Below, in pieces: positions 11,168 through 37,468 of a stretch of 64,000 nt of DNA; the stretch's first letter is position 1, and each line of letters begins with the position of its first letter. Origin of the DNA: Candidatus Omnitrophota bacterium (GTDB lineage: Bacteria; Omnitrophota; Gorgyraeia; Aquiviventales; Aquiviventaceae). The stretch covers positions 10,390 to 74,389 of the forward strand of contig JACQHR010000032.1 in assembly GCA_016198905.1 (NCBI GenBank). The letters are read 5' to 3'. The notes below the pieces were generated by a model. That model saw only the letters and a list, made by a program, of their open reading frames with translations. It had not been told where the DNA came from and made no database searches. The position numbers and the translations under genes are program-made.

Positions 11168-11390
11168 ATTGCTGTAATCTTCGAGAGACTGCTCCGCCTA
11201 GCAGGGCGCGAAACTTATGGGTCGCGGCGATCAAGGCTTTTGAGAGATTGGTTTCGGTAAGAATGCCGGCGAGGCCGTGGGAGGCGCAGGGATGGGCTCT
11301 AGCAAAACCCATAACAAGGAAGTCGTCAGCGTGTGCTACAATCGTGACGTTGTGATGGACAGCTGATTACGTGAAGGGACGAGGAGCGCC

Positions 11391-12146: not shown

Positions 12147-12235
12147 CTGACGCGCACGTTCGTCGGCTCTTTGCTCGTCGTGGCAGTCTGATCTCCGTCA
12201 TAGACGTCGTTTCATGCCTTACGTATCGTAGGGGG

Positions 12236-12946: not shown

Positions 12947-12981
12947 GCGTGTCAGCGTGAGTGCCGAGCCAGGAGGGTGCG

Positions 12982-14313: not shown

Positions 14314-14491
14314 TTGACAAGAGCGCTCCGCCCCTAGATGAATCGCCGTCGAGAATAATTATGACGGCAATCATATACAGGCAAGCAGGTTCTGCGTAAC
14401 CTTGGAAGTGCAACGGGACTGAAGTGACGGCTGGCAGCGGGATCTGCGAGGGTGCGGGAGGTGCCGCCCACGAAAAGACGGGAGGGCCCAA

Positions 14492-15193
14492 ATGAAAGCC
14501 GTCGAGCGGTTGCAACGGGACCATAAAATTCTGCGGGCCAAGCTTGACGTCCTGGAGTCTGCGCTTCGCATGGGGCCGCAGACGTGGTATGTGTTGCGGG
14601 AAACATGTTTCACCCTCTCGCGGCAGTTGCGCGATCACATCCGGCGCGAGGATGACCTCGTGGCCGCGTGCCGTATGGCGATGAATCCCAAGATCTTGGC
14701 CGAGGTGGTCGTGGCGCATCACGACGAGCCTGAGCATTTGCGGATGATCAATCGGCTGTTTGTGAGCGAAGGGCAGCGATCATTTGATCAGATTCAGGAA
14801 GCGCTGACGCAGGTGATCGAGGGGTTGCGGCGGCATATGAGCGAAGAAGAAGCGGAGTTGTTTCCTATTTTCGATCGCGTCCTCACCGATCAGGATGCTA
14901 TCGCAGGCGTGTCGACGGAGCCGCCGGCGCGCTTTGAGGAAACGATGACGGTCAATCGAATCATCCAGCAGTGTCCACAGACAAAGCCTGTCTTCGAGCA
15001 GCTCTTCATCAACATTCCGGTGGAAGGATGCACTTGCCTCGATGAAGTGGCGTGGCGGCATGGAGTGGAGAGTCGCGACCTCGTGCACCATCTGGAAGAG
15101 GTTGCGCACTCCTGTGAATGCGCCCACAAGGTGACGGCAACAGAGGAAAGCAACCTGACGCTTCAGCTGAGTGAGGCCAAGGAAAGCACCTGA
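14492..15193 (+). CDS. Hemerythrin-like (HHE) domain protein with C-terminal DUF1858/ScdA_N-like domain
   Basis: N-terminal helical His/Glu motifs (RDHIRREDD, HHDEPEH, RRHMSEEEAELFP). C-terminal segment MTVNRIIQQCPQTKPVFEQLFINIPVEGCTCLDEVAWRHG. The domain order is reversed relative to YtfE/ScdA (RIC) proteins. Confidence 0.65.
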   Translation: MKAVERLQRDHKILRAKLDVLESALRMGPQTWYVLRETCFTLSRQLRDHIRREDDLVAACRMAMNPKILAEVVVAHHDEPEHLRMINRLFVSEGQRSFDQIQEALTQVIEGLRRHMSEEEAELFPIFDRVLTDQDAIAGVSTEPPARFEETMTVNRIIQQCPQTKPVFEQLFINIPVEGCTCLDEVAWRHGVESRDLVHHLEEVAHSCECAHKVTATEESNLTLQLSEAKEST

Positions 15194-15258
15194 GACGTGC
15201 TCCGTCTGTGGAGGCGTCGGGGTGCAAGTTTCTCGCCAGGCTTCCGTAAGAAGATACA

Positions 15259-15287
15259 TTGACACGAGTCGTCCGCATTTCTACTAT
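15259..15287 (+). promoter_or_regulatory. Putative sigma70-type promoter of nirK
   Basis: TTGACA (15259-15264), a 17-nt spacer, then TACTAT (15282-15287). It lies about 75 nt upstream of the nirK ATG. Confidence 0.35.
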
Positions 15288-15362
15288 AACTCTCTACATG
15301 CATGGAGCGCGGGAGGGTTTCGCGCGGCGTGACGACAGAAGCATGGAACAAGAGGAGGCGCG

Positions 15363-16403
15363 ATGCGTCGCTATGTGGCGGTGATCGTGAGTACCTTGTG
15401 GGTGTGGAGTAGCAGCCCCGTTGCCGACGCAAAACAAAAACACGCACTTCCCGTCGAGGAAGCCACCCTCACATTCGCGCCAGACGTGCCCCCGCCCATT
15501 ACGCGCAAGTCCCCGGCTCTTATCAAAGTCCATCTCGAGGGTGGCATGAAGGAGATGGCGCTGAGCGATACGGTCAAGTACAAGTTCTGGACGTTCAATG
15601 ATCATGTGCCCGGGCCCTTTATCCGCGCGCGCGTCGGCGATACATTGGAAATACATATGACCAACAGCGATGCCAGCGGGATGCCGCACAACGTTGATTT
15701 CCACGCCGTCACCGGTCCTGGAGGGGGTGCCACCGTCACAACCGCGGTGCAAGGCGAAGAAAAGGTCGCATGGTTCAAACTCCTCCACCCAGGCCTTTTC
15801 ATCTATCACTGCGCGGCCCCGCCCGTCATGGATCACATCGCCAATGGGATGTACGGGCTCATTCTCGTGGAGCCCGAGAAGGGGTTGCCCAAGGTCAACC
15901 GGGAGTTTTACGTGCTGCAAAGCGAGTTCTACACGAAGGATCCAGTGCAGGGTTCTGACGTGCTGGAGTTTTCGCACGAGGCAGGCTCGCAGGAGCATCC
16001 GCGGTTTGTGGTCTTCAATGGGCGGATGGGGTCGTTGATTGGTGAGCACGCGCTGAAAGCGAAAACCGGTGACGTCGTGCGAATCTACTTCGGCAACGCC
16101 GGGCCGAACCTCATCTCGTCCTTCCATGTGATCGGAGAAATCTTCGATAAGGTCTACCGCGAAAGCGATTTCATCAGCCCGCCGGGCCGCAGCATTCAGA
16201 CCACACTCGTGCCTGCGGGAGGCTCCACGACGGTGGAGTTCGGGGTCGAAGTCCCCGGCAACTACACGCTCCTCGACCACGCGATCTTCCGTGTCGAGAA
16301 GGGGGCGGTGGGGTATCTGAAAGTCGAAGGCCCGCCTCGGCATGACATCTACGTGTCCCAAGATGAGGCCACGGCTTGTCCAGGCTGTCTCGTCCACCCC
16401 TGA
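15363..16403 (+). CDS. nirK: Copper-containing nitrite reductase
   Basis: Signal peptide. Type-2 Cu motif HNVDFHAVTGPGGG. Type-1 Cu motif FIYHCAAPPVMDHIANGMYG. Two-cupredoxin size (346 aa). Confidence 0.9.
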   Translation: MRRYVAVIVSTLWVWSSSPVADAKQKHALPVEEATLTFAPDVPPPITRKSPALIKVHLEGGMKEMALSDTVKYKFWTFNDHVPGPFIRARVGDTLEIHMTNSDASGMPHNVDFHAVTGPGGGATVTTAVQGEEKVAWFKLLHPGLFIYHCAAPPVMDHIANGMYGLILVEPEKGLPKVNREFYVLQSEFYTKDPVQGSDVLEFSHEAGSQEHPRFVVFNGRMGSLIGEHALKAKTGDVVRIYFGNAGPNLISSFHVIGEIFDKVYRESDFISPPGRSIQTTLVPAGGSTTVEFGVEVPGNYTLLDHAIFRVEKGAVGYLKVEGPPRHDIYVSQDEATACPGCLVHP

Positions 16404-16422
16404 GTGAAGGGTGTGGGGCGCG

Positions 16423-16710
16423 TCAGATGCGCGCGGCGTGAGGGATCAGCGGGTGCGTATTCATAAACGCAATCCATTGGCGCCGGGCCGCAGCGAACGC
16501 CTTGCGTTGCATCGCCACCTGATGACGGAGTGTCGCGACGTACGCCTGTGAGCGCTCCGTCACCGTGACCTGCAAGTACCGCCACTCCTTCTCCAGCCGC
16601 TTCCATTCATATTCAGTGCGCGTTATCTCCAATGATAAGGCACCGTGCAGTGTCTCGTCGTGCACGGAATGGTTGCCCGCTTCCTCCTGGTGCGGTATGA
16701 TGCTAACCAT
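16423..16710 (-). CDS. Possible small helical protein (95 aa) hidden in a long antisense ORF
   Basis: This is the C-terminal part of track ORF 16423..17775(-). It lies in the nirK-nirA intergenic gap and does not overlap the revised nirA start (16738). By my own codon read-out, third positions are mostly G/C. Sequence MVSIIPHQEE...EYEWKRLEKEWRYLQVTVTERSQAYVATLRHQVAMQRKAFAAARRQWIAFMNTHP. No clear RBS. Confidence 0.3.
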   Translation of the reverse strand: MVSIIPHQEEAGNHSVHDETLHGALSLEITRTEYEWKRLEKEWRYLQVTVTERSQAYVATLRHQVAMQRKAFAAARRQWIAFMNTHPLIPHAARI

Positions 16711-16737
16711 AGTAGAAGCGACGTGAAAGGAATCCCC

Positions 16738-18507
16738 ATGGCTGAGACACTTGCCGATACCCGCCTCGAAGAGTTCCTCCGGGAAATGCCCCAGGCAACC
16801 AAAGAGGAAATCACCGAGTTTCGCCAGCTCGTGGAGCGCTACTTCTTGGGTCAGATCACGCCCGATGAGTTCAAGGCCAAGCGCCTCCACATGGGCACGT
16901 ACGGAATCCGCGGCGTCAAAGACATCCACATGATGCGGATCAAAATCCCCGCCGGCAAACTCAACGCCGAGCAGCTGGAGTGCCTCGCCGACCTCGCCGA
17001 GCAATATTCCAAGAGCATCGGGCACATCACGACGCGCCAGGATATGCAGTTGTACTGGATTCCAACCAAGGAGGCCCCGAAGGCGATCATCCGGGCCGCG
17101 GCGGTGGGGCTGACGACGCGCGAAGCCTGCGGCAACAGCGTGCGTAACGTGACCGCCTGCTACCTCGCCGGCGTGAGTCCGACGGAGCTGTTCGATGTGA
17201 CCCAGCACGCCGAGGCGGTGATGCGCCACTTCCTGCGCAATCCCTGCTCGCAAAAGCTGCCGCGCAAATTCAAGATCGCCTTCGAAGGCTGTCCGACCGA
17301 TCATGCCAAGACCGCGATCCACGACATCGGCGCGGTCGCGGCCGTCAAAGAAGAAGGCGGCACACGCATCCTCGGGTTCAAGATCTACGTCGGCGGAGGG
17401 TTGGGGGCGGCTCCGATGCAGGCGATCTTGCTGGAGCCCTTTACGCCGGCGACGGAGTTGCTCCGGACATGCGAGGCGGCGGTGCGCGTCCACGATCGGC
17501 TTGGCGATCGCAAGAACAAGGCGACCGCCCGCATCAAGTTTGTCGTGAAGCGCTTGGGGCCGGATGCGTTTCGGAAAGAAGTCTTCGAGGAGCGCGCGAA
17601 GCTGCCGCAGTATCCGTATCCTGAAATGCACGTGACTGAAACCAACGAACAGCCGCCCAAACCCGTCGACATCAAACCCGCCACGCCCGTCAACACCACC
17701 TACGCACGGTGGATGCTCACGAACGTCACCGGACAAAAGCAAGCCGGCTACTCCACCGTCATCATCCGGCTGCAACTTGGCGACATCTCCTCCTCGCAGA
17801 TGCGCGCGTTGGCCAAGATCATTCGACGCTACTGCGGCGGCATCGTCCGTACGATGATTACACAGAACTTAGCACTGCGCTGGATTCGTACCGAGCATCT
17901 CGCCCCACTTTTCAATGAGTTGCATGCGGTGGGGCTTGCCGAGCCGGAAGCGGAGCGGCTCTACGACGTGACCTCGTGTCCGGGTGCGGAGACCTGCCAA
18001 TTGGGTATTTCGGCCTCGAGAGGGCTCGCGCGGGCCTTGGAGGCGCGCTTGAAAGCCTCCGGCCTTGGGGGTGAGGACCTCGACCGGTTGCACATCAAAG
18101 TCAGCGGCTGTCCCAACTCGTGCGGGCAGCACCACATCGCGGATATCGGATTCTTCGGTGGCGCGAAAAAGGTCAACGACCATTTGACCCCGCACTTTCA
18201 GCTTATGCTCGGCGGTCTCGCGGAGGAAGGCAAGGCGGAATTTGGCCAGCCGATCTTGAAGCTACCGGCGCGTCGGATTCCTGATGCGGTCATCCGGATT
18301 CTCGAGCGCTATCGCCAGGATCGGCAGTCCGTGCAGGAGCCCTTCAAAATCTTCGCCAGGCGCGTTGGAATCGACTATTGGAAACGTACGCTCGAAGAGT
18401 TCACGACGCTGCCGGCCTATGAAACGTCGCCCGAAGCCTACCGCGATTGGGGCGCCGAAGAAGAGTTCTCCCTTGGCGGCATGGGGCCGGGGGAGTGCGC
18501 GGCGTAA
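16738..18507 (+). CDS. nirA: Ferredoxin-dependent siroheme nitrite/sulfite reductase (NirA-like)
   Basis: The ATG at 16738 follows aaagga. Siroheme-[4Fe-4S] Cys motifs are TSCPGAETCQLG and VSGCPNSCGQHH, and the half-domain is duplicated. Nitrite versus sulfite specificity cannot be decided by eye; the position next to nirK favours nitrite. Confidence 0.75.
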   Translation: MAETLADTRLEEFLREMPQATKEEITEFRQLVERYFLGQITPDEFKAKRLHMGTYGIRGVKDIHMMRIKIPAGKLNAEQLECLADLAEQYSKSIGHITTRQDMQLYWIPTKEAPKAIIRAAAVGLTTREACGNSVRNVTACYLAGVSPTELFDVTQHAEAVMRHFLRNPCSQKLPRKFKIAFEGCPTDHAKTAIHDIGAVAAVKEEGGTRILGFKIYVGGGLGAAPMQAILLEPFTPATELLRTCEAAVRVHDRLGDRKNKATARIKFVVKRLGPDAFRKEVFEERAKLPQYPYPEMHVTETNEQPPKPVDIKPATPVNTTYARWMLTNVTGQKQAGYSTVIIRLQLGDISSSQMRALAKIIRRYCGGIVRTMITQNLALRWIRTEHLAPLFNELHAVGLAEPEAERLYDVTSCPGAETCQLGISASRGLARALEARLKASGLGGEDLDRLHIKVSGCPNSCGQHHIADIGFFGGAKKVNDHLTPHFQLMLGGLAEEGKAEFGQPILKLPARRIPDAVIRILERYRQDRQSVQEPFKIFARRVGIDYWKRTLEEFTTLPAYETSPEAYRDWGAEEEFSLGGMGPGECAA

Positions 18508-18856: not shown

Positions 18857-20935
18857 ATGATCTACCACGACAAGATGAAGTCATACACTGAGACGAGCCG
18901 AATGAAGACGACGCACAAGACCCGCCGGCTGGTGATCTACCTCATTAAGCCTTCGAAGTACGATGAGAGCGGCTATGTCATCCGGTACTGGAGAGGCGTG
19001 CTGCCGAGTAATTCCTTAACGTGTCTCTATGGGTTAACGGAGGATGTGCGCGAGCGGGGCGTGCTGGGGCCGGCGCTCAACTGGAAGATCGAACTCATCG
19101 ATGAGACCGTCCAGCGTGTGGAGACCCGGAAGATCCTGCGGCGAAGCCGGCGGCCTGGCACGACCGTGCTCGTCTGTCTCGTCGGGGTGCAGTCCAATCA
19201 ATTTGTCCGGGCGGCGGATTTAGCGCGGATCTTTCGTGCGGGCGGCCTCGATGTGTTGATCGGAGGATTCCATGTGAGCGGCTCGCTGGCGATGCTGCCG
19301 CAGATTCCTGCAGAGATCCGGGCGTTGCTCGATATTGGCGTGACGGTTGTGGCAGGAGAAATTGAGGGAAAGTGGGACGCCATCCTCAGCGACGTGCTGC
19401 ACCGGCGCTTGCAGCCCATCTACAATTTTCTCTCAACCTCCCCGTCGCTGGAGACGGCTCCGATGTCCAAGATTCATCCACGCTACGTGCGGCGCTTTGT
19501 CTCGACGACCTTCAGTACGCTGGACTGCGGGCGCGGTTGTCCCTTCAACTGTTCGTTCTGCACCGTCATCAATGTCCAGGGACGCGCGATGCGCTTGCGT
19601 CATGTCGACACCGTCCTAGCCACGATTCGGGAGAACTATCGCCGGCATCGCATCGGCTCCTACTTCTTTACGGACGACAACTTCTGCCGCAATAAGCATT
19701 GGGAAGCCCTCTTCGATGGCCTCATCCGGATGCGGACGCACGACAAGATCCGTATCGGGTTCATGATCCAGGCGGATACACAATCCTACAAGCTGCCCAA
19801 TTTTATCGCCAAGGCCAAGGCCGCGGGCTGCTCGCAAGTCTTTATCGGACTGGAGAGCCTCAACCCGCAGAATCTCGAGGCCGCCGGGAAACGGCAGAAC
19901 AAGATCGAACAGTTTCAGGCGCTGATCCAGGCCTACCGGCACGCCGGCATCAACACCCACGTCGCCTACATCATCGGGTTTCCGTTCGATACCTCCGCGT
20001 CGGTAGCACGAGACATCCGCCGGCTGACGGACGAGCTAGGACCGGAGCAAGCGTCGTTCTTCATGTTGACCCCGCTGCCCGGGTCGCAGGATCACGTCGA
20101 GCTGTGCCGGCGGGGCGCGTCGATGGACGCGGATCTGAATCGCTACGATTCGTTTCATGCCACGACCGACCATCCGCGCATGTCGCGCGAAGAGTGGACG
20201 CAGGCGTACCACGAGGCGTGGACGTCATTTTACGGTCTTGAGAACATGACCCGGATTTTGCAACGCGTCAGCGCGGAAAACTACTGGGCGGTCTTTGCGA
20301 ATTTCATCTGGTACAAGAATTCGACGATGGTGGAACAAGGCCATCCGATGATCCATGGGTTCATCCGGTTGAAAGGGCGCGATCAGCGCCGACCGGACCT
20401 TTCGCGGGAATCCTGGTGGGTGTATGCGAAGCGCCGTGCGAGCGATCTGTGGCGCTACGTCAGGCTCTGGCCGCGTGTGGCGTTCGAAATGGAGGAGGTG
20501 TGGTTGCAGACGCGCCCTCGCAGCGCGCTCGAGCAGCGGGTGGTCGAGGAGCTCGCGCGCATCCCAGTGAGCGCGAGGGGATGGCGGCGGATGCGCGTGG
20601 CGGAGCTCCAACAGGCGTACCGACGAGCGATGACCGCGTTGCATCGCAGCGTCCCGGAAGAGCTGGCGCTCCGGGTGACCGTGCCCTCGCGCCTGCGATT
20701 GTGGCTGGTGCGAGTGAATCCGTTCGCCCACTCGCTGACATCGTCGCGCCGGTCCCTGACGCGCTTCTGGCGCATGTGCGCGCATCAGGTGAGACACGGC
20801 CGGTTCGACCGGCTTGACGTGAGCGGCCTCGCCTTCAATAGTCTGCAAGAGGTAACGTTGTTCGGGACGTTCGCGTTCCTCTTTTTCTCCCGGCTGCTTC
20901 ATCGGCTGATGGCCCGGCCTCGCATGGTCGCATAA
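18857..20935 (+). CDS. B12-binding-domain radical SAM protein with a long Arg-rich C-terminal extension
   Basis: N-terminal Rossmann-like B12 domain (VLVCLVGVQSNQF...LIGGFHVS). Radical SAM cluster motif CGRGCPFNCSFC. 692 aa. Confidence 0.75.
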   Translation: MIYHDKMKSYTETSRMKTTHKTRRLVIYLIKPSKYDESGYVIRYWRGVLPSNSLTCLYGLTEDVRERGVLGPALNWKIELIDETVQRVETRKILRRSRRPGTTVLVCLVGVQSNQFVRAADLARIFRAGGLDVLIGGFHVSGSLAMLPQIPAEIRALLDIGVTVVAGEIEGKWDAILSDVLHRRLQPIYNFLSTSPSLETAPMSKIHPRYVRRFVSTTFSTLDCGRGCPFNCSFCTVINVQGRAMRLRHVDTVLATIRENYRRHRIGSYFFTDDNFCRNKHWEALFDGLIRMRTHDKIRIGFMIQADTQSYKLPNFIAKAKAAGCSQVFIGLESLNPQNLEAAGKRQNKIEQFQALIQAYRHAGINTHVAYIIGFPFDTSASVARDIRRLTDELGPEQASFFMLTPLPGSQDHVELCRRGASMDADLNRYDSFHATTDHPRMSREEWTQAYHEAWTSFYGLENMTRILQRVSAENYWAVFANFIWYKNSTMVEQGHPMIHGFIRLKGRDQRRPDLSRESWWVYAKRRASDLWRYVRLWPRVAFEMEEVWLQTRPRSALEQRVVEELARIPVSARGWRRMRVAELQQAYRRAMTALHRSVPEELALRVTVPSRLRLWLVRVNPFAHSLTSSRRSLTRFWRMCAHQVRHGRFDRLDVSGLAFNSLQEVTLFGTFAFLFFSRLLHRLMARPRMVA

Positions 20936-20936
20936 G

Positions 20937-22058
20937 ATGCCTGCGCCGACCACGCACCCTGCGATGAAACGCCCAGCAGCGGTGAATTTCGATGAGACTC
21001 CCTTCATCGTCATTTGGGAGACGACGCAAGCGTGTGACCTGGCCTGCGTGCATTGCCGCGCGAAAGCGCAGCCCAACGCGTCACCCGACCAGCTCACGAC
21101 GGCCGAAGGATTCGCCCTCATTGATCGGATCGCCGCGATGGGAACACCGATCCTTGTCCTGAGCGGCGGCGATCCGCTCTCGCGGCCGGATCTGCCCGAG
21201 CTGATACGACATGGCAAAGCGCGCGGTCTGCGCATGGCGACGATTCCGGCGGCGACGCCGCGGTTGACGGCTGAAGCGGTCCACACACTGAAGGCAGCCG
21301 GACTGGATCAGATGGCGCTGAGCCTCGACGCGAGCACAGCCGAGGCGCACGATCGGTTTCGCGGTGTGCCGGGCGCATTCGAGAAAACGATGGCGGCGGC
21401 TGCGTGGGCGCATAAGGTTGAACTGCCGCTGCAAATCAACACCGTCATGACTGCGCAGAATATTGACGACATCGACCGGCTCGTGGCACTGGTGGGACAA
21501 CTCGGCATCGTGTTTTGGGAAGTGTTCTTTCTGGTGCCGGTCGGACGCGGGGTCTGCGTGACGGGCTTGACGGCGCAACAATACGAAGGCGTCTTTGCGA
21601 AGCTCTACGCGGCAGAACGATCAGTCCCCTTCATCATCAAAGTGACGGAAGGATTGCACTACCGCCGCTTCCGAGTCCAGCAGGCCATGGCGCAACACGA
21701 CGCATCCAAGAGCGCGGAGCCTCGTTGGGGGGAGCACGGTCCTGGAGGCTCAATCGGTGTCGCGCCACAAACCGTCAACGCCGGGAAAGGGCACCTCTTC
21801 ATTTCGCACACCGGTGAGGTGTTTCCGAGCGGATTTCTGCCGCTCTCCGCAGGGACGATCCGAGAGACGGACCTTGCGAGACTCTATCGCACCGCGCCGC
21901 TTTTCCGCGCGCTGCGCAATCCTAACGCGTTGAAGGGGCGTTGCGGCCGCTGCGAATTTCGGTCGCTCTGCGGCGGCTCACGCTCGCGCGCCTACGCGAT
22001 GGCCGGGGACTATCTCGCCGAAGATCCGTGCTGCGGGTATCAGCCTGTTGGCCGGTAG
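20937..22058 (+). CDS. Radical SAM/SPASM-domain protein (AhbD/NirJ-like fold)
   Basis: CDLACVHCRA (CxxxCxxC) motif, VFWEVFFLVPVGRG, and a C-terminal Cys-rich SPASM-like tail (GRCGRCEFRSLCGGSRSRAY...DPCCGY). Confidence 0.75.
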   Translation: MPAPTTHPAMKRPAAVNFDETPFIVIWETTQACDLACVHCRAKAQPNASPDQLTTAEGFALIDRIAAMGTPILVLSGGDPLSRPDLPELIRHGKARGLRMATIPAATPRLTAEAVHTLKAAGLDQMALSLDASTAEAHDRFRGVPGAFEKTMAAAAWAHKVELPLQINTVMTAQNIDDIDRLVALVGQLGIVFWEVFFLVPVGRGVCVTGLTAQQYEGVFAKLYAAERSVPFIIKVTEGLHYRRFRVQQAMAQHDASKSAEPRWGEHGPGGSIGVAPQTVNAGKGHLFISHTGEVFPSGFLPLSAGTIRETDLARLYRTAPLFRALRNPNALKGRCGRCEFRSLCGGSRSRAYAMAGDYLAEDPCCGYQPVGR

Positions 22059-23301
22059 CACCGGGATGATTCGGTGGGGCGGCCTTCGTCGTGAGCCATT
22101 TCGGATTTTTTTTCCTCTTGGCATCTGCTTTAGCTTACTCGGTGTCAGTCACTGGCTCTTCTACGCCATCGGCGTGACACACACCTACTCCGGATTCTAC
22201 CATGCGACGATTCAGGTCGGCTCGTACATGGCCTGTTTTGTGTTCGGGTTTCTCCTGACCGCCCTGCCACGGTTCGCCAGCGCCCCACCGGCGACAACCA
22301 CCGAGCTGCTGACCATCATCGGATTGTTCATGGTCCAGTTGCTGTGCGTTTCTTGGGGGCGGTGGATCTTCGCAGAGCTCTGTTTTATAGGGCTCCTGGT
22401 CATGCTGGCCATCTTCGCGGGACGTCGATTTGCCGGACGGTCTTCGAGCGTTGGACCACCGACAGAGTTTGTGTGGATTCTTGTGAGTCTCCTCTTTGGT
22501 GTCAGTGGCACGGCGTTGCTGATCCTCGGACAACTGGGTGTGCTGGGATTGTGGGCGCTCGCGATGGGACGACCCATGGTCCAGCAAGGATTTCTCTTGA
22601 GCATTGTCATGGGCGTTGGCGGCTTCATGGCTCCACGGCTCATGGGACGCGGGTTTCCAACGGTGACCCCAACATTAGAGGAAGCTCGGCGCATCCGGCA
22701 GCGACGTACGCGACTGCATATGCTAGCAGCCGTGGTGCTGGGGAGTACCTTTTGGATGGAGCAGGCCGGGGCGATGCGCGTTGCCTACCTTGTCCGAGCG
22801 CTCGTCGTGACCGCGGAGCTTGCATGGACGACGCAATTCTATCGACCCGCGAAAGTGGCCGACCTCTATGTGCGGTTCGTGTGGATCTCACTATGGATGA
22901 TCGTGGCGGGCCTGTGGCTCATCGTTCTTGTGCCGGCCCATCGCGTCGCACTGCTGCATATCGTGTTTCTTGGGGGATTCAGTGTGATGGCCTTCGCAGT
23001 GGGGACCATGGTGGTGCTCAGTCATAGCGGCCAAGCACCCTTGCTGCGTCGCCCGTTGTGGGTGCTGCGACTCACCGGCACCATGTTGGCAGCCGCGCTG
23101 GCGTTTCGCCTCGCCGCAGATGTTCTGCCGCACCAATTCTTTGCATTGCTCGGCATCGCTGCGGCGTGCTGGATCATCGCGGGAATGGGGTGGCTCATGT
23201 TTGTCGCCCCACGACTTGGCCAGCAGCCTGCCGCGGATGAGTTTGAGCGGCTCCATGCCGAAGCCAAACAGCGACTCCTCAACACGACCCCTGTATGCTA
23301 G
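22048..23301 (+). CDS. NnrS-like polytopic membrane protein
   Basis: About 12 TM helices, N-terminal EPFRIFFPLG motif, ~400 aa, in a nitrite/NO gene context. This is a family assignment by resemblance only. Confidence 0.5.
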   Translation: MAGSTGMIRWGGLRREPFRIFFPLGICFSLLGVSHWLFYAIGVTHTYSGFYHATIQVGSYMACFVFGFLLTALPRFASAPPATTTELLTIIGLFMVQLLCVSWGRWIFAELCFIGLLVMLAIFAGRRFAGRSSSVGPPTEFVWILVSLLFGVSGTALLILGQLGVLGLWALAMGRPMVQQGFLLSIVMGVGGFMAPRLMGRGFPTVTPTLEEARRIRQRRTRLHMLAAVVLGSTFWMEQAGAMRVAYLVRALVVTAELAWTTQFYRPAKVADLYVRFVWISLWMIVAGLWLIVLVPAHRVALLHIVFLGGFSVMAFAVGTMVVLSHSGQAPLLRRPLWVLRLTGTMLAAALAFRLAADVLPHQFFALLGIAAACWIIAGMGWLMFVAPRLGQQPAADEFERLHAEAKQRLLNTTPVC

Positions 23302-23395
23302 AGCCCATCCCCACACCTCCTCGAATCGCTCCAGATTATCTATATGATTGATATCATGGTGTCTTATTTCGCAGTAAGATACCGTAACTTCCAAA

Positions 23396-24604
23396 TTGAC
23401 GCGGATGCAAAGAGTTGCTATTGTGCGAGATGCCTGCATGATTGGACAACAAGTGTGTGACACGCAAAGCAGCGCTGTGATTTCTCTGGTTCACCCTTCC
23501 CATCCCCGCCGCGTAACGATTCAACCGCATCTGCTTCTTGTGGGTGTCAACTATCGGACGGCTCCCGTTGAGCTTCGCGAACGGCTGGCGATTCCTTCCC
23601 GCGACCTTCCCGAGGCCCTTCGCACCCTTCGAGCGATCCCCGGCGTTGATGAAGCCGTGATCCTCTCCACGTGCAACCGAATCGAATGCTACGTCGTGAC
23701 TGCACAGCCCGACTCCGTGTTCTCACAGCTGGTAGAGTTCCTCGCTTATCGCAGTCGCGTGCCTGCCACGATCGTGCAATCCGCCTCCTATCACTTCACG
23801 GACAACGAGGTGATGACGCACGTCTGCCGCGTCGCGGCGGGCTTGGATTCCATGGTCCTCGGAGAGTGCGAGGTGACGGCGCAGGTCAAGCAGGCGTATC
23901 TGCTCGCGCACGCCCACCACGCGACCGGGCCGGTGCTGAATCGCCTCTTCCAAAAAACTCTCCACACGACGAAGCAGCTTCGGTGCAACACGACCATTGC
24001 GCAGGGCCGCACTTCCATCGGATCGATCGTGGCCGCACTGGCGGCACAGCCGTTCGACAATCGATTGGATGCGTGCGAAGCGCTGCTGTGGGGCGCAGGC
24101 AAGGCGGCCGAAGCGACGGCAAAGCATCTCATCAAAGGGGGCATTCGGCAGCTCTGGATCGTGAACCGGACGCAAACCAAGGCGCAAGACCTGGCCCTCC
24201 TGTGCGAGGGCGGATGGCTCTCGTGGGAGCAGGCGTTGAAACATCTGGCGCACGTCGATATCGTCATCGTGTGCACGCAAGCGCCGCATTATGTGATTGA
24301 CCGTCACGACGTGGAGGCCATCCGAGCCGCGCGTGGCGGACGGCCGCTGTGCATCGTGGACTTGGCGGTTCCGCGCAACGTCGATCCCGTCCTGAAAGAT
24401 GTGGCGGGGGTCTTTCTCTACAACGTCGACGATCTCCAGGCGATGGCCTGCGCGGGGCAGACGCAGCGCCAACGCACCCTCGCATTGTGCGATGAGCTCA
24501 TCGCGCGGCAAGCGACGCTCTTCATGGCATGGTGGCAGGCAACGATGGCAACTACGAAGGAGGGCGCAGGATGTCAGCTCGACCAGTCGCGCGCATCGGT
24601 GTAG
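23396..24604 (+). CDS. hemA: Glutamyl-tRNA reductase
   Basis: LLLVGVNYRTAPVELRERLA, catalytic-Cys motif LSTCNRIECY, and NADPH-binding LLWGAGKAAEATAKHL. The start is uncertain (23396 or 23438). Confidence 0.9.
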   Translation: MTRMQRVAIVRDACMIGQQVCDTQSSAVISLVHPSHPRRVTIQPHLLLVGVNYRTAPVELRERLAIPSRDLPEALRTLRAIPGVDEAVILSTCNRIECYVVTAQPDSVFSQLVEFLAYRSRVPATIVQSASYHFTDNEVMTHVCRVAAGLDSMVLGECEVTAQVKQAYLLAHAHHATGPVLNRLFQKTLHTTKQLRCNTTIAQGRTSIGSIVAALAAQPFDNRLDACEALLWGAGKAAEATAKHLIKGGIRQLWIVNRTQTKAQDLALLCEGGWLSWEQALKHLAHVDIVIVCTQAPHYVIDRHDVEAIRAARGGRPLCIVDLAVPRNVDPVLKDVAGVFLYNVDDLQAMACAGQTQRQRTLALCDELIARQATLFMAWWQATMATTKEGAGCQLDQSRASV

Positions 24605-24963
24605 GCCTCGCAGGGATCGTGTGGCTCGCCACACCCGCGTGGGCGACGATCGATAACTTCAAGAGTTACAAAGCGGCCTATCCAGGCAAAGACGCCAAAG
24701 CCTACTCGTGCAAGGTCTGCCATCAACACCCCGTTGGACGTGCGGGCGATCTCAATGCGTACGGGAAGGCGTTGCAGCAGTCGAAGGCGCAGATCGGCGC
24801 CAAGAAGCTGACGGTCGAGGACTATCGTGCGAGTGAGAAGGGTGACGCCGACAGTGACGGCGCCTCGAACGTCGAGGAGATCAACGCAGGAACGTCTCCG
24901 AGCGATCCGGCATCCGTTCCAAAAGGGATTCATACTCCGCACGCTGCAGGCAAGGCCAAGTAA
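24571..24963 (+). CDS. Secreted monoheme cytochrome c with a thrombospondin-type-3-like acidic Ca-binding repeat
   Basis: RBS gaaggaggg precedes ATG 24571, which overlaps the hemA 3' end by 34 nt. Signal peptide ...ATPAWA. One CKVCH motif. DADSDGASNVEEINAGTSPSDPASVP repeat. Confidence 0.75.
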   Translation: MSARPVARIGVGLAGIVWLATPAWATIDNFKSYKAAYPGKDAKAYSCKVCHQHPVGRAGDLNAYGKALQQSKAQIGAKKLTVEDYRASEKGDADSDGASNVEEINAGTSPSDPASVPKGIHTPHAAGKAK

Positions 24964-25032: not shown

Positions 25033-26259
25033 ATGCGGAGAGCATGGATCGGCATGGGGGTGGTGAGCGTGGTGTTGGCTGGCGTGAGCGACGCGTGGGC
25101 GATCCCGGCCTTCGCGCGCAAGTACGGGGTTTCCTGCAACGTGTGCCATCGGCCGAACGTGCCGCGGCTGAACGACTATGGCCATCGGTTTCGGAAGCTT
25201 GGCTATCGCGTACCTGAAGAGGTGGGGCAACAGCCGGAATACAAGGAGATTGGCAACTTTATTTCCATGCGCGGCCGGATGCGCTATGACTACGAGGACT
25301 TCGAGCGAGGGCGCAACACCAGCGGTTTTAGGTGGAACGATGCGACGCTGTTCTACGCCGGTTCCGTGACGAAAAACCTGTCCTCCTTTTTCGAGTGGGA
25401 ATGGGAGGATGAAAACGAGATCGGGTTGAACGGACAATTCTCATGGTTGTTTGGTGGACCGGACCGCTACGCCCAGATCCGCTTGGGACAGATGCACACC
25501 CTGTCGCGTGTGGGGTGGGCCGGGTTTGATCGACCTTCCGGCATCTCCACGACCGACGTGATCGGCAGTACGCTGACGACGACTGCGGTGCCGTTTACGC
25601 TCGCGAAGGACCAGCGTGGGCTGGAGCTTGCCGTTGGACTCAATCCGGACATTCGGCTGATCGGCCAGATCTTAAATGGGCTCGATACGAGTGGGAGCGG
25701 GACGACCGGCACGCGGGATAATGATACCAGCAAGGACGTGCTGCTCGCCTACGAGCACATGTTAGGCAAGCACGGCTCCGGCGTGACCGGGGTCTTCTAT
25801 CGGGGGACATGGCACCAAGCGGCTGGCACGGTCGTGAGCGGCACCGCCTTACCGGACGATAATGCGTTCACGAAATTTAATTTTTACCGCTACGGCCTCA
25901 CCGGAAGTTTCGTGTTTGATACGCCCTTCTGGTCGGGTCACGAGAGCGAGTTCAACGGCGGAGCGATCTTCGCCCATGATCAGGGCCCCAGCGCGTATCC
26001 AGGCGGAAAACCCAACGCCGACGGACAGGCCTATTTCTTGGGAGTGGAACAGTACTTGCAGGACGCCTCGGTGTTCAGCCGGTTCGACTTCCGCAATATC
26101 GAAGTGAGCGGCGAGGACAATTGGCGTCGGAAGTACACCGTCGGAACGGCCAAGCAGGTCAACGACTACCTGCGGCTGGCTCTCGAAGGCTTCGTGAAGG
26201 ACCAGGAGTCCGCTAACGACAGCTTCGGGGCGCAGGTGGAGGCGATGTTCAATTTCTAG
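25033..26259 (+). CDS. Cyc2-like fused monoheme cytochrome-porin (outer membrane)
   Basis: Signal peptide ...VSDAWA, then immediately IPAFARKYGVSCNVCH (single CXXCH). About 360 aa of alternating beta-strand-like sequence follow, ending EAMFNF (terminal Phe). 408 aa. Confidence 0.7.
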   Translation: MRRAWIGMGVVSVVLAGVSDAWAIPAFARKYGVSCNVCHRPNVPRLNDYGHRFRKLGYRVPEEVGQQPEYKEIGNFISMRGRMRYDYEDFERGRNTSGFRWNDATLFYAGSVTKNLSSFFEWEWEDENEIGLNGQFSWLFGGPDRYAQIRLGQMHTLSRVGWAGFDRPSGISTTDVIGSTLTTTAVPFTLAKDQRGLELAVGLNPDIRLIGQILNGLDTSGSGTTGTRDNDTSKDVLLAYEHMLGKHGSGVTGVFYRGTWHQAAGTVVSGTALPDDNAFTKFNFYRYGLTGSFVFDTPFWSGHESEFNGGAIFAHDQGPSAYPGGKPNADGQAYFLGVEQYLQDASVFSRFDFRNIEVSGEDNWRRKYTVGTAKQVNDYLRLALEGFVKDQESANDSFGAQVEAMFNF

Positions 26260-26326: not shown

Positions 26327-26926
26327 GTGGTCATGGCCGAGCCAGCGCTGGCAGCCACGCGTGTCACCATTCGAGAGCTCAAGGAGCACCCTCAGCGCTA
26401 TTACGGAGAGGAACTGCTCCTTGAGTGCTACTACGATAAAGAAAGCCCTGTCTGGGTGCGTGCGCTGCCGGATGCCGATGAGTGGGTTGGGTTTTTCGTG
26501 ACCGGACGGCCCGACAAAACACTGACCTGGAGCGGAGAGTATTACAATCTCCTCTTTACGCCCGCTCGCACGCGGGAGGCGCTACGGACCTTTCGTGGTG
26601 GCGACAAGATTACGGTGATCGGGGAAGGATTTCGTTACGCCTCGACAAGTCTGGAGGGAGTTGGCATCCACGTGAGGCAATTCCTCGCGGGGTGGGGTCC
26701 GTCTGCCAAATCGATTCACGGCTCAGGGAACACTGCCCCGATGCCAGCCGCTTCTGTGGCTCCCGGCGCCCCACCGTCCTCAGAAGTGAGCATGTCTGCT
26801 CCGCCGCCACTTGAGGGTGGGGAGAAACTTGCGGTGACCATCAACGGGAAGCACTACACCGGCCTGCGGTTTGGCGACGCCTATAACTTCGATGGAATCG
26901 AGTTTCAGGTGGACAAGTCACGTTAG
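26327..26926 (+). CDS. Hypothetical protein, probably secreted (true start possibly upstream at 26294)
   Basis: The ORF-track GTG start gives no signal peptide. The in-frame upstream codons (26294-26326) encode V-RAWLLTAGLL, which joins VVMAEPALA|A into a textbook Sec signal. A GGAGGG box lies 6 nt before codon GTA 26294. Confidence 0.5.
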   Translation: MVMAEPALAATRVTIRELKEHPQRYYGEELLLECYYDKESPVWVRALPDADEWVGFFVTGRPDKTLTWSGEYYNLLFTPARTREALRTFRGGDKITVIGEGFRYASTSLEGVGIHVRQFLAGWGPSAKSIHGSGNTAPMPAASVAPGAPPSSEVSMSAPPPLEGGEKLAVTINGKHYTGLRFGDAYNFDGIEFQVDKSR

Positions 26927-27033: not shown

Positions 27034-28227
27034 ATGTCGATCCGTCGAGGTGTTGTCCTCGCTCTAGGCGTGTCGCTGACGACGTGTCTACTGTGGGGGG
27101 TTCCCGCATGGGCGACTATTGAGGATCTCAAGAGTTTCAAGCAGGCCTATCCAGGCAAAGAGCCCAAGGCCTACTCGTGCAAGGTCTGCCACCTTAGCCT
27201 GGTGGGCAAGAAAGGCGAGCTCAACGCCTACGGGCTGGCCCTCCAGAAGCTCAACGTTCCTGCCGATCCGAAGAAGCTGACGGTTGACGATTACCGGGCG
27301 ATTGAAACGGAGGATGCGGATCAAGACGGCGCACCGAATGGAGATGAGATCAAGGCAGGAACGGATCCCGCCGATCCGGCCTCGGTTCCGGCTGGGATGA
27401 AGCCGTCCGAGACGAAAGAGGAGAAACAAGAGGAAGGGGTGGGAGAGAGCAAGCCCGAGAAACCCTCATCCGCCGCTCCGTTTCGACGTCCGAGACTCAG
27501 CTCGTTGGACGAGTTCATCATGCCAAACGCCTGGGCGGCCAAGACCGAATCCGAAGAGTCGCAGTCGCCGCCACCAAAAGCCGAGTACGTGGGCACCGAC
27601 ACCTGCGCCGGCTGCCATGTGAAGCAGGCTGAAGAGTTCAAACATTCCACTCACGCCCAGATTGCCGTGCCCGGCGAAGGTGTCGGTGCGCAAGGCTGCG
27701 AGGCATGCCATGGCCCAGGCAGCCTCCACGCGGAAGCCGGCGGCGGCAAGGGAGTCGGCGGCATCATCAATCCGCGCAAGGATCCCAGCACCTGTTTTGC
27801 CTGCCATCTCGACAAGAAAGCCGAGTTCCGATTGCCGTACCATCACCCGGTGATGGAAGGCAAGATGAGCTGCGCTGACTGTCACAGCGCGCACGGAGAA
27901 GACGTGCGGCCGTGGTCAGCCACCAGCCTCAAGGACATTAACGAGGCATGCTTCAAGTGCCACAAGGACCAGCGCGGCCCGTTCGTGAATGAGCATGAGG
28001 CACTGCGCGAGGGCTGTACGACCTGTCACAAGGTCCATGGCTCCATTCACGAGAAAATGCTGTTGGCGAGGGACAGCAATCTGTGTCTGCGCTGCCATAC
28101 GCAGACCAACTTCCCAACCATCGGCGGATCAGGCCACACCGGTCGATTGAATCAAAGCACGTGTTTCAGCGCCGGGTGTCATACGGCGGTCCACGGCTCG
28201 AATTTTGATGAACACCTGCGCTACTAA
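27034..28227 (+). CDS. Periplasmic multiheme cytochrome c: N-terminal monoheme/TSP3 module fused to an 8-motif (7 CXXCH + CX4CH) MtoA/PioA-like heme domain
   Basis: Eight CXXCH motifs (CKVCH, CAGCH, CEACH, CFACH, CADCH, CFKCH, CTTCH, CLRCH) plus one CFSAGCH (CX4CH). The N-terminal ~110 aa are paralogous to 24571..24963. Confidence 0.85.
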   Translation: MSIRRGVVLALGVSLTTCLLWGVPAWATIEDLKSFKQAYPGKEPKAYSCKVCHLSLVGKKGELNAYGLALQKLNVPADPKKLTVDDYRAIETEDADQDGAPNGDEIKAGTDPADPASVPAGMKPSETKEEKQEEGVGESKPEKPSSAAPFRRPRLSSLDEFIMPNAWAAKTESEESQSPPPKAEYVGTDTCAGCHVKQAEEFKHSTHAQIAVPGEGVGAQGCEACHGPGSLHAEAGGGKGVGGIINPRKDPSTCFACHLDKKAEFRLPYHHPVMEGKMSCADCHSAHGEDVRPWSATSLKDINEACFKCHKDQRGPFVNEHEALREGCTTCHKVHGSIHEKMLLARDSNLCLRCHTQTNFPTIGGSGHTGRLNQSTCFSAGCHTAVHGSNFDEHLRY

Positions 28228-28240
28228 AAGGAGGCCCTTG

Positions 28241-30322
28241 ATGCGTGCCACAAGATGCTGGGTGTTGGCGGTCGTCATAGGCAGCAGCGCGTTCGCGGGA
28301 ATGCATGCGGCCACCGCCGCAGATGCCGAGGGTTTCATCACAACGGTGCCGATGAGGTACATCGTTGTGGACGGAGATTCCGGGAAGTTTCGGGCGCATC
28401 ATTGGATGAATGACGGGTACGCCGGCGGCATCAAGGACGCCTCCGGGCATTTCGCGTTGCCGGATGGGACTGAGGTTTCCGGAGAAGGGCACGCCCTCAT
28501 TGATGCCAACGATTTGGGAGCGGCGCTGTCGATCAAGAAGGAGCATCTGGGGTTCTTCGATTTCGATTACTCGGAGTTTCGGAAGTATTTCGATACCGGC
28601 GCCGGTGCGCATCGCCGGTTTGCGACCTTGCAGTCGCCCGATACGGATAAAGACTTGCAGTTGGACATCGGGAAATTCGGGCTGGAGACCGGGTTGACGC
28701 TTGAGGGATGGCCGGAGCTGAGCGTGGAGTATGAGCGGGAGTTCAAAGATGGCACCAAATCGCGCCTGACGTGGACATCGGTGAAGGAGGCCAGTGAGAC
28801 GCGTAGTATCGGGCCGTCCTGGCAGGAGATCGATGAGACCGTGGACTCGTTTGCTTTGAAGGCGAACGATGACATCGCCGGATTTGCCCTGCACGGGGAG
28901 CAGCGGTGGGAGTTTGCCCGCGCGGAGACCCTCCGGGAGGAGAAGTACCTGGCGACGACGGGAGTGGCGTCCGATACCAAGATCCGTCGGCAAAATCAGG
29001 GACCGCAGGCCATCGTCTTGACGACGACGTTGGGAGGCGAGCGCAGCTTCCTGGAAGATAAGGTGTTTATGTCCTCCGGGTATCATTTCAACCATCTGAA
29101 GAATCGCGAGATTGAATCGATCACGGAGACGGACGCGGCAGGCGTCATCACGAACTTCTCACGCGGCGAAAACAAAACCGACGCTCGGTCGGACAGCGAC
29201 TACGACTCGCACACCTGGGTGCAACACGTCATGTTCAACCCGTGGCAGACGGTCAGCATCGGGACGAAGCTCAAATCCGAGGTCATCACGCGCCATGGCA
29301 ATTCCACTTATCCATCCTACGCGGAATCCTCCGCCACGCCGGAGGCTTTCGATACCGTGCTTGATCACACGGAGGTGACGCTGTCGGATGCGAAAGCGGC
29401 GCGGTGGGGTGAAGGACTCTCCCTGCGATTTACCGGGGTTCCGCGGACCGCGCTGTATACGGAATTGGAGTTTGAGCAATCTCGTACGCTGCTGCGCGAG
29501 GATCGCCGGAGCCTTGACGGCCCGGATACCGGTGACGACTCTGTGGCGACTGAGGTCTTTCAGCGGGAGACCGTCACGGAGGTTCGTCGCGGCGCGTGGA
29601 CGTTGGGCGGACGGACGAGCCCCTGGCGGTTCGTTGATCTCACCACGCAGGTGCGGCGTCGGGTGTATAACAATGACTATGACGACCAGCGGGAAACTGT
29701 GGCCTCCGGCGCTCGCTCAGCGTTCTTCGACGGGCAGAGCATCCACACCGATGAGTTTTCCACACGGCTCACGCTCAAGCCCTGCCGGTGGTTTAAGCCC
29801 TCCTTCCGCTACCAGCTTCGGGCGGATAAGTACGCGACCAGGGCGGAAGCGCAGCCGATCGTCAAAACGGAGTCCCTCTCAAACATTTATACGTTTGACG
29901 TGATGGTGCAACCTGTGCGCGATCTGATCACGACGGCGACGTTTTCGCGACAGACCGCCTCCACCACCACCCCGGCGAGCGTGTTTTCCACCGCGTCCAG
30001 CAATATCCCCACGTTCAACGCGGATGTGAATACGTGGCTGCTGGGCGCGGACTATACGTTCAAGCCGAACATCACGCTTAACGGCGCGCTCCAGTACTCT
30101 TCGGCGAACAACTTCAACGACTATGCCAATACGGGGCTACCGCTGGGTGCCGACTTCCACAAGCTCGATCTCACGGCAGGTATGAAGTGGTCGCCGATGA
30201 GGCTCAAGGATACGTCGATCGGAGCCGAATACGGCTTGTACACGTACAATCCCAACGAGAACGTCGAGGTCGGCGACTACAAAGCGCATATGATCTCGTT
30301 CGAAGTGTCCCGGACGTTCTAA
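28241..30322 (+). CDS. Large outer-membrane beta-barrel porin (MtoB/PioB/MtrB-like partner of the upstream cytochrome)
   Basis: RBS aaaggagg precedes ATG 28241, 13 nt after the cytochrome stop. Signal peptide ...AATAADA. 694 aa rich in alternating aromatic/polar strands, ending FEVSRTF. Confidence 0.7.
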   Translation: MRATRCWVLAVVIGSSAFAGMHAATAADAEGFITTVPMRYIVVDGDSGKFRAHHWMNDGYAGGIKDASGHFALPDGTEVSGEGHALIDANDLGAALSIKKEHLGFFDFDYSEFRKYFDTGAGAHRRFATLQSPDTDKDLQLDIGKFGLETGLTLEGWPELSVEYEREFKDGTKSRLTWTSVKEASETRSIGPSWQEIDETVDSFALKANDDIAGFALHGEQRWEFARAETLREEKYLATTGVASDTKIRRQNQGPQAIVLTTTLGGERSFLEDKVFMSSGYHFNHLKNREIESITETDAAGVITNFSRGENKTDARSDSDYDSHTWVQHVMFNPWQTVSIGTKLKSEVITRHGNSTYPSYAESSATPEAFDTVLDHTEVTLSDAKAARWGEGLSLRFTGVPRTALYTELEFEQSRTLLREDRRSLDGPDTGDDSVATEVFQRETVTEVRRGAWTLGGRTSPWRFVDLTTQVRRRVYNNDYDDQRETVASGARSAFFDGQSIHTDEFSTRLTLKPCRWFKPSFRYQLRADKYATRAEAQPIVKTESLSNIYTFDVMVQPVRDLITTATFSRQTASTTTPASVFSTASSNIPTFNADVNTWLLGADYTFKPNITLNGALQYSSANNFNDYANTGLPLGADFHKLDLTAGMKWSPMRLKDTSIGAEYGLYTYNPNENVEVGDYKAHMISFEVSRTF

Positions 30323-36477: not shown

Positions 36478-36998
36478 TGCGTCTGAGACCCGTGACGTGG
36501 TGCACGGTGATGGTCGGTGCGTTCAGCCTCTGGGCCGCCCTGCGGTCTGATGCCCAGGAATCTCTCCGCGGGGGGACGCAGACCGAGGAAGAAGTCAAGG
36601 AAGCGGCCAAGCAACCGTATGCGAATGACCTGGGTTCTGATACTATTGATGTCTCGAGCTATCCACCTCAGATGCAGCGAGCCCACGTCCTGTTTTCGCA
36701 GAAATGCTCCCGTTGTCATACGCTGGCTCGACCCATCAATTCCCAATGGGCCACCGCGGTCTTCTGGGAACACTATGTGAAGCGGATGTGGCGCAAGCCG
36801 GGCAGCGGCATCAACGGAGCGGAGGCGAAACAGATCTGGGAATTTCTTGTCTACGACTCCCAGGTGCGCAAACTCGATCATCGAGAGGTATTCAAGGCGT
36901 TCCGAAGACGACTGCTGGAGGAGTTCAGGCAGCGTTACCCCGCCAGGTTCCAGGAGCTCTACGGTGGCGCGGAAGAAGACGCCGTGCGACTCTGGTAA
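36477..36998 (+). CDS. Monoheme cytochrome c (ActE-like position)
   Basis: ATG 36477 overlaps the ActC-like stop (gcTGATGc). Signal/anchor MRLRPVTWCTVMVGAFSLWAAL. One CSRCH motif. The track ORF 35958..36998 is an artefactual 5' extension. Confidence 0.7.
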   Translation: MRLRPVTWCTVMVGAFSLWAALRSDAQESLRGGTQTEEEVKEAAKQPYANDLGSDTIDVSSYPPQMQRAHVLFSQKCSRCHTLARPINSQWATAVFWEHYVKRMWRKPGSGINGAEAKQIWEFLVYDSQVRKLDHREVFKAFRRRLLEEFRQRYPARFQELYGGAEEDAVRLW

Positions 36999-37017: not shown

Positions 37018-37464
37018 GTGATGTGTCCCAGGCAACGGATCAGCCGACGGGAGTTTTTGCGGTACCTGCTCAAGAGCGGTGGGGTTGCATTCCTGGGGGC
37101 GGCGATCTATCCCATTGCGCGGTACCTCTACCCCCCGCGGGGGGTCGAGTCGTCCGTCTCCACCGTCGTGGCCGCAACGCTCGGGGAGCTGGCGGTGAAC
37201 ACAGCCAAGATCTTCCGGTTCGGCAGCCGTCCGGGACTCCTGATCAACACCCCGCAGGGTGAACTCAAAGCGTTTTCCGCGGTGTGCACGCACCTCAATT
37301 GCACCGTGCAATACGAGCCGGACAACAGCCTGATCTGGTGCGCCTGCCACAACGGCAAGTATGACTTAAACGGCCAGGTGATTTCCGGCCCGCCTCCCCG
37401 GCCGCTTGAGGCCTATCAGGTGAACGTCCGGGGCGAGGAGATCCTCGTCTCGAAGCCGGCGTAA
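37018..37464 (+). CDS. Rieske [2Fe-2S] protein
   Basis: Tat signal RISRREFLRYLLKSGG. Rieske boxes CTHLNCTV and CACHNGKYD. Confidence 0.9.
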   Translation: MMCPRQRISRREFLRYLLKSGGVAFLGAAIYPIARYLYPPRGVESSVSTVVAATLGELAVNTAKIFRFGSRPGLLINTPQGELKAFSAVCTHLNCTVQYEPDNSLIWCACHNGKYDLNGQVISGPPPRPLEAYQVNVRGEEILVSKPA

Positions 37465-37468
37465 CTCG

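Follow-up and report, generated by a model that had tools for sequence, protein, structure and literature searches.

Does a porin-like gene from an uncultured groundwater bacterium encode an outer-membrane electron conduit of the Cyc2 family and, if so, from which donor and in which direction would electrons pass through it? The question is raised by an open reading frame (ORF; 25033-26259, + strand) in a 64,000-nucleotide stretch of a Candidatus Omnitrophota genome (assembly GCA_016198905.1, contig JACQHR010000032.1, positions 10,390 to 74,389; hereafter the window), for which a first-pass annotation had proposed a Cyc2-like fused cytochrome-porin. It is of some consequence since no genetic marker of microbial iron oxidation is used more widely than Cyc2, and what its divergent homologs mean is acknowledged to be an open question. 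On its own, the window protein adds little, being one more uncharacterised homolog from an uncultured groundwater bacterium, and it is the genomic context that makes it useful. As argued below, our data support its assignment to the Cyc2 family, provide good support for a role as one-heme electron conduit of the outer membrane and leave Fe(II) oxidation as our best guess for its function.

Sequence and predicted fold of the protein

The ORF translates into a 408-residue protein with a C-terminus (...AMFNF) that ends in Phe. Its predicted signal peptide (MRRAWIGMGVVSVVLAGVSDAWA, residues 1-23), as read from the sequence, comprises a basic n-region, a hydrophobic core and an A-W-A cleavage site, and the AlphaFold model places a low-confidence N-terminal helix at residues 2-16. 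Directly after the signal peptide follows IPAFARKYGVSCNVCH, and CNVCH (residues 35-39) is the sole CXXCH of the 408-aa protein. Thus, the signal peptide, the only CXXCH behind it and a barrel ending in Phe within 408 residues, all of which the first-pass annotation had listed, are present in the translation. We prefer the start codon at 25033 over an in-frame ATG at 24964 because a strong Shine-Dalgarno sequence (GAGGAGGGGAG) lies just 5' of ATG 25033 and because the annotation of a public metagenome-assembled genome (MAG) labelled Candidatus Omnitrophica contains the identical protein of 408 aa (P0001). Together with the lengths of the homologs, these points led us to reject the 431-aa ORF that would begin at 24964.

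According to the published definition (Keffer 2021, PMC8406198), Cyc2 proteins carry a signal peptide, one CXXCH, a motif AXPXFAR[Q/K][T/Y] upstream of it, which is described as unique to Cyc2, and PXL four residues downstream; they are at least 365 aa long and form a 16-strand porin that resembles OprO/OprP. In the window protein, the signal peptide leads into A23-I-P-A-F-A-R-K-Y31, then GVS and the single CNVCH, which RPNV separates from P44-R-L46, and the length of 408 aa lies above the published minimum. This defining motif, which combines the heme attachment site with the Cyc2 signature (IPAFARKY, GVS, CNVCH, RPNV and PRL; residues 24-46, 25102-25170, + strand), occurs in its complete form only once when the 64-kb window is translated in all six frames. 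Across 57 aligned homologs, C35, C38, H39, R29, Y31, P44 and L46 are invariant, as are about 15 positions of the barrel, so with heme and flanking motif residues conserved throughout, the Cyc2-type motif is no product of chance. After removal of the signal peptide, the heme-ligating His becomes mature residue 16, and the same position is occupied by the heme His in the model of Acidithiobacillus ferrooxidans Cyc2 (Jiang et al.).

The first-pass annotation had spoken of beta-barrel-like sequence, and this is borne out by structure prediction. An AlphaFold2 model based on the 57-sequence alignment (mean pLDDT 88.1, pTM 0.85) has short helices at residues 26-31, 48-55 and 70-76, followed by 16 long strands between residues 77 and 407. 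Foldseek matches it to 16-strand porins of the PDB, namely PorB, OmpU, OmpT, Omp32, OprP (2o4v) and OprO (4rjx), with E values of ~1e-9 to 1e-7, TM scores of 0.5-0.7 and identities of 7-15%. OprP and OprO are also the templates reported for Cyc2 PV-1 from Mariprofundus ferrooxydans (PMC8406198). Hence, the predicted protein consists of a helical cytochrome domain of about 50 residues (~24-76) fused to an OprO/OprP-like barrel (77-407), and it is on these grounds that the proposal of a Cyc2-like fused cytochrome-porin can be upheld.

The best-conserved segment of the barrel is the loop that joins strands 5 and 6 (residues ~156-192, 25498-25608, + strand; RVGWAGFDRPSGIS), which we delimited from the alignment and the AlphaFold model and which follows the pattern Gx[AG]GFDRP[TS]G. 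It sits where 16-strand porins have their constriction loop L3 and is preceded by H155, which is 98% conserved. We suggest that the loop may form the pore constriction or a metal or substrate site.

Searches of reference libraries were less informative. Pfam and NCBIfam scans of the protein gave no meaningful match, neither library having a Cyc2 model, and no Pfam porin model was significant on it. PDB sequence searches, with the single sequence as well as with a profile, found no relative of solved structure. A tblastn search against plasmids, aimed at validated Cyc2, had no match; a broad profile, to which six synthetic FARQT baits had been added as seeds, led back to the same MAG proteins, and a search with P0139 (a guessed Cluster 1-like protein) returned MAG hypothetical proteins only. 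So our assignment of the window protein to the Cyc2-family fused cytochrome-porins, which we regard as supported, is drawn from the published sequence features and the predicted fold rather than from direct alignment or a tree.

Comparison with characterised proteins points the same way. Cyc2 PV-1, A. ferrooxidans Cyc2 and Leptospirillum Cyt572 have the same AXPXFAR[K][Y] directly after the signal peptide, a single CXXCH with PXL four residues downstream, a length of ~400 aa, a predicted 16-strand OprO/OprP-like barrel, an aromatic C-terminus and an adjacent gene for a periplasmic c-type cytochrome. Unlike these, the window protein comes from an uncultured groundwater Omnitrophica-labelled MAG with no known iron-oxidizing physiology, and its adjacent cytochrome is not of the Cyc1 or class I type. 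OprP/OprO, PorB, OmpU and Omp32 share its barrel fold and strand number but lack a heme domain. MtrAB, MtoAB and PioAB are, like the window protein, outer-membrane conduits made of a beta-barrel and c-type heme; they differ, however, in that a separate ~26-strand barrel encloses a membrane-spanning decaheme wire (PMC8406198). An MtrA homolog and a putative porin are indeed encoded 0.8 kb downstream of the Cyc2-like gene in the same orientation, and we considered whether the Cyc2-like protein is part of an MtrAB/PioB-type complex. We reject this as it is a single chain with one heme and 16 strands.

Relatives of the protein and linkage of their genes

How far does the family extend? A database search returned 87 relatives, 72 of which match most of the query at E < 1e-30, and exhaustive searching with a profile gave 3,314 cluster representatives at E ≤ 0.001, of which 1,037 also pass E ≤ 1e-10; many matches are full length. 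Nearly all full-length profile matches have one CXXCH after a variant of the motif and an aromatic C-terminal residue, and some relatives carry the Pfam domain Porin_O_P. Identity between the window protein and distant profile matches is 21-26%. Since accepted Cyc2 proteins of different clusters share just 15-23% with each other, this divergence is normal for the Cyc2 family. Five of the profile matches (P0114, P0128, P0135, P0159 and P0223; 487-578 aa) have a second CXXCH about 60-70 residues past the first and look like diheme variants of the fused cytochrome-porin.

Homologs of the close clade with 77-84% identity are found in named genomes among Omnitrophota- and Planctomycetales-labelled MAGs, and further members of this clade in named genomes of Verrucomicrobia and Gemmatimonadota; all of these have the same architecture. 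Full-length homologs with 38-40% identity occur in Nitrospirota, including Nitrospira and Ca. Manganitrophaceae MAGs, and share both the architecture and a GFDRP loop motif that places them in the same clade as the window protein. Cyc2 homologs have been reported from the same Nitrospirota lineages, that is Manganitrophaceae/Troglogloeales and Nitrospirales (Yu et al. 2022, PMC9040806), albeit the loci compared here may not be the exact genes that these authors call Cyc2. Metagenomic surveys, too, already call cyc2 in MAGs of Planctomycetota, Gemmatimonadota and Acidobacteriota.

Most members of the clade (loci L006-L048 and profile matches) read PAW[A/G/S]R[K/R]Y, with Trp replacing the Phe of the published PXFAR. 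The window protein, in contrast, has Phe and would pass the published Cyc2 motif screen. Because this screen requires Phe, it would have missed much of the clade, which is therefore probably under-represented in published Cyc2 trees.

Is there a constant genomic context? At least 25 of the 36 loci with enough flanking sequence have a gene for a c-type cytochrome on the same strand within 400 bp of the Cyc2-like gene, and those adjacent c-type cytochromes that we tested in other phyla are class I cytochrome c. When only loci with at least 2.5 kb of flank on both sides are counted (n=22), 12 have a cytochrome b gene within 2.5 kb, usually together with a Rieske gene. In Omnitrophota-labelled, Verrucomicrobia and Nitrospiraceae loci cytochrome b lies downstream of the Cyc2-like gene; in Gemmatimonadota loci it lies directly upstream and takes the form of a cytochrome b-c fusion. 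There, five loci (L032, L034, L036, L044 and L045) have upstream a cytochrome b of ~490-505 aa with a C-terminal class I cytochrome c domain, and directly downstream of the Cyc2-like gene a class I cytochrome c of 112-131 aa. That the linkage persists although gene order varies is an argument for functional coupling between the Cyc2-like gene and cytochrome b, and recurrent linkage of this clade to Rieske/cytochrome b complexes is to our minds a modestly new observation.

Among the four closest relatives (L001-L004) the context is collinear. Two Crp regulators, hemA, a monoheme cytochrome, the Cyc2-like gene and a 199-aa gene are followed by genes for a Rieske protein, cytochrome b and two multiheme cytochromes, and in L004 then by ResB. 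In the window, hemA (23396-24604, + strand) encodes glutamyl-tRNA reductase, the first step of heme synthesis; it is the closest gene upstream of the cytochrome pair, in collinear order also in L001-L004 and L006. The 199-aa protein of unknown family (26327-26926, + strand) is co-conserved downstream in L001-L004, where Rieske and cytochrome b genes come directly after it. This identifies their counterparts in the window, the Rieske protein with TAT signal (37018-37464, + strand) and cytochrome b (37469-38542, + strand), as native neighbours of the Cyc2-like operon despite their present distance. The two multiheme c-type cytochromes (38455-41364, + strand), one with nine CXXCH and the other, NapC/NirT-like, with six CXXCH and one CX4CH, are collinear in the relatives as well. 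No terminator-like site was found on the + strand in the scanned 23.2-30.6 kb, from hemA to a 705-aa gene. A. ferrooxidans differs in this respect; its cyc2 is linked to the cox/rusticyanin (rus) operon and not, as is native to the window type, to a Rieske/cytochrome b-multiheme complex.

Together, these contexts agree with the suggestion of the first-pass annotation that the protein is an outer-membrane entry or exit point for electrons, as c-type cytochromes and Rieske/cytochrome b recur around its gene in several phyla. Its further suggestion of a dedicated soluble monoheme partner holds only in part. A signal-peptide monoheme c-type cytochrome is indeed encoded just upstream (24571-24963, + strand; 130 aa, CKVCH, with a TSP3-like Asp-rich segment) and is a candidate periplasmic electron carrier; that it is dedicated to the Cyc2-like protein is plausible but weak, because it is kept upstream only in L001-L004, has no match to class I cytochrome families of Pfam or NCBIfam and recurs, duplicated, at the N-terminus of the MtrA homolog. 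The first ~120 residues of the latter are 59% identical to it (E = 1e-44), and the copy includes signal peptide and TSP3-like Asp-rich segment. This is a module duplication or fusion, and the monoheme cytochrome is thus a module common to Cyc2-like and MtrA systems rather than a unique Cyc2 partner.

Donor, direction and rival roles

What, then, may the protein do? If it works like the characterised Cyc2 proteins, a reduced metal ion in solution (most probably Fe2+) would enter the pore from outside and, at the periplasmic mouth, hand one electron to the heme. The next carrier would be a small c-type cytochrome of the periplasm, for which the monoheme protein encoded upstream is the candidate, and inner-membrane complexes would follow, in this lineage the Rieske/cytochrome b complex whose genes, with those for multiheme c subunits, lie next door. 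The sequence features of Cyc2, the barrel fold, conservation across the family and gene linkage are shown by our data; where the heme lies relative to the pore, what the substrate is, which way electrons flow and which partner takes them are parts of this scheme that we infer. For a Cyc2-family porin-heme protein that takes electrons, most probably from Fe2+, into a periplasmic chain, we estimate a probability of roughly 55%.

Several points weigh against this reading. Every relative retrieved is an unnamed MAG protein. AlphaFold leaves the heme unmodelled, so the place of the heme domain relative to the pore stems from inference. The mature 130-aa monoheme protein, as read from its sequence, has no Met; its ligation may thus be bis-His and its potential lower, which would not be an obvious fit for a high-potential donor chain. 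Moreover, the window has no gene for a terminal oxidase or for carbon fixation and has an anaerobic/N-oxide flavour (Crp, NnrS, NIR_SIR, hemerythrin). Finally, Cyc2 homologs are common in organisms not known as iron oxidizers, and those who defined Cyc2 hold the function of divergent homologs to be uncertain (PMC8406198).

Some of these points would suit electron exit instead. Here, quinol would feed the Rieske/cytochrome b-multiheme complex, which would pass electrons via periplasmic cytochromes to the heme of the Cyc2-like protein and from there to a soluble acceptor in the pore, chelated Fe(III) or another small oxidant, for example. Tight linkage to Rieske/cytochrome b and multiheme cytochromes is in keeping with this, as the usual direction runs from quinol to cytochrome c; so are the MtrA-type conduit next door, the anaerobic regulation and N-oxide genes in a window that has no oxidase, and the description of electron flow through A. 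ferrooxidans Cyc2 as reversible (Jiang et al.). However, all biochemically characterised Cyc2 have been shown to be Fe(II) oxidases, and the midpoint potential of Cyc2 PV-1 was measured at +208 mV (PMC8406198). In addition, bc complexes also serve in the uphill branch of iron oxidizers and not just in ordinary quinol oxidation, so gene linkage leaves the direction unfixed. We therefore consider electron exit unlikely, although present evidence does not tell oxidation from reduction, nor Fe(II) from Mn(II).

Alternatively, the heme of a Cyc2-superfamily porin might have a non-respiratory role, be it in redox sensing, ion-selective pore gating, metal uptake or detoxification. In favour of this, Cyc2 homologs abound in Burkholderia, Ralstonia and Xanthomonas, which are not known iron oxidizers, and the function of divergent homologs has been termed most uncertain (PMC8406198); the barrel is similar to those of anion- and phosphate-selective porins, the window encodes VIT1 and a P-type ATPase, and the Cyc2-like gene is linked to hemA and to heme-related radical SAM genes. 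Yet the metal-transport genes lie 13-20 kb away and are not collinear in the relatives, and linkage to c-type cytochromes and Rieske/cytochrome b, independently arranged in four phyla, points to respiratory electron transfer. Since it recurs under differing gene orders, this linkage amounts to independent genomic evidence that these divergent Cyc2 homologs act in respiratory electron transfer, and we regard a non-respiratory role as rather improbable.

As for the metal, the very high potential of the Mn(II)/Mn(III) couple counts against a specific Mn(II) oxidase of the kind proposed for Cyc2 in Candidatus Manganitrophus. The window holds nothing specific to Mn, and the closest relatives of the protein, whose organism is outside Manganitrophaceae, do not belong to this family. 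What speaks for Mn(II) are the aforementioned homologs (38-40% identity) in Manganitrophaceae MAGs and the listing of Cyc2 among the Mn(II)-oxidation candidates of Yu et al. (PMC9040806). According to the same study, however, Cyc2 is not specific to Manganitrophaceae, and the candidates restricted to that family are PCC_1, TO_2 and Complex_I_3. So to our minds, Mn(II) as the dedicated donor is speculative and very improbable.

Returning to electron uptake from Fe2+, a bolder extension may be considered, although we hold it to be doubtful. The clade with loop motif G.AGFDRP[TS]G and mostly PAW.R.Y could be a distinct Cyc2 clade, largely filtered out by the published screen, that forms a conserved three-part electron-uptake module from Cyc2-like porin, small cytochrome c and Rieske/cytochrome b complex in Nitrospirota, Gemmatimonadota, Verrucomicrobia and Omnitrophota-labelled groundwater bacteria, to which an MtrA route would be added in the window. 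If so, this would imply unrecognised metal lithotrophy in abundant uncultured lineages, possibly with Fe(II) oxidation coupled to N-oxide reduction, and the inserted MtrA-type conduit, by re-using the monoheme module, would equip one locus with routes for dissolved as well as solid-phase donors. And should these proteins be metal oxidases, the potential for iron oxidation would be underestimated in Nitrospirota, Gemmatimonadota and related lineages of groundwater and soil.

Genes around the Cyc2-like gene in the window

In the window, a block at ~26.95-37.0 kb, which is absent from L001-L004, splits the 199-aa gene from the Rieske gene. This ~10-kb insertion encodes the MtrA homolog, a 705-aa protein, an SPFH protein and a molybdopterin oxidoreductase with FeS and NrfD subunits; a small monoheme cytochrome lies within it, too, at ~36480-36998. 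The MtrA homolog (27034-28227, + strand) is an MtrA/DmsE-type multiheme cytochrome with eight CXXCH and one CX4CH that matches 6r2q_A with E = 1.8e-30. The 705-aa protein (28205-30322, + strand) has a signal peptide, ends in ...SRTF, and its gene overlaps the stop of the MtrA homolog by 23 bp. Searches of Pfam, NCBIfam and PDB sequences gave no match for it, and an AlphaFold model made without alignment was discarded for its pLDDT of 28. It may be an outer-membrane porin partner of the MtrA homolog, perhaps of an unclassified type. We also considered whether the pair is part of the conserved Cyc2 module and rejected this since the block (26.95-37.0 kb) is missing in its entirety from the four closest relatives. 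L004 also lacks a second block, at ~41.4-46.4 kb.

The start of the 199-aa gene may be non-canonical. Its frame is open upstream from 26261 into a hydrophobic signal-like segment (..VRAWLLTAGLLVVMAEPALAA), and no ATG, GTG or TTG precedes GTG 26327 in it.

Further out, a heme-related run upstream (18857-24604, + strand) consists of a B12-binding radical SAM protein, a TIGR04053 radical SAM/SPASM protein that is AhbD-like (451 bits, cutoff 395), NnrS and HemA. Before it, the region 7531-18507 holds two Crp/Fnr-type regulators, the VIT1 Fe/Mn transporter, a PAS-GGDEF protein, hemerythrin, a two-domain multicopper oxidase (15363-16403) and a nitrite/sulfite reductase (16645-18507); taken together, these genes suggest regulation that responds to low oxygen or N-oxides. 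Downstream, the electron-transport run at 37018-49869 (+ strand) begins with the TAT-signal Rieske protein, cytochrome b, the 9-heme cytochrome and the NapC/NirT-like cytochrome described above, continues with an 11-heme protein fused to cytochrome b561, an 8-heme c554-like protein and FeS and NrfD proteins, and ends with System II cytochrome c biogenesis genes (ResB, CcsA). Near the start of the window (2863-4786, + strand), a gene for a C39 peptidase-domain protein precedes one for a 411-aa outer-membrane barrel of the Phenol_MetA_deg family, and P0079, a distant Cyc2-like match, likewise has a Phenol_MetA_deg Pfam barrel annotation.

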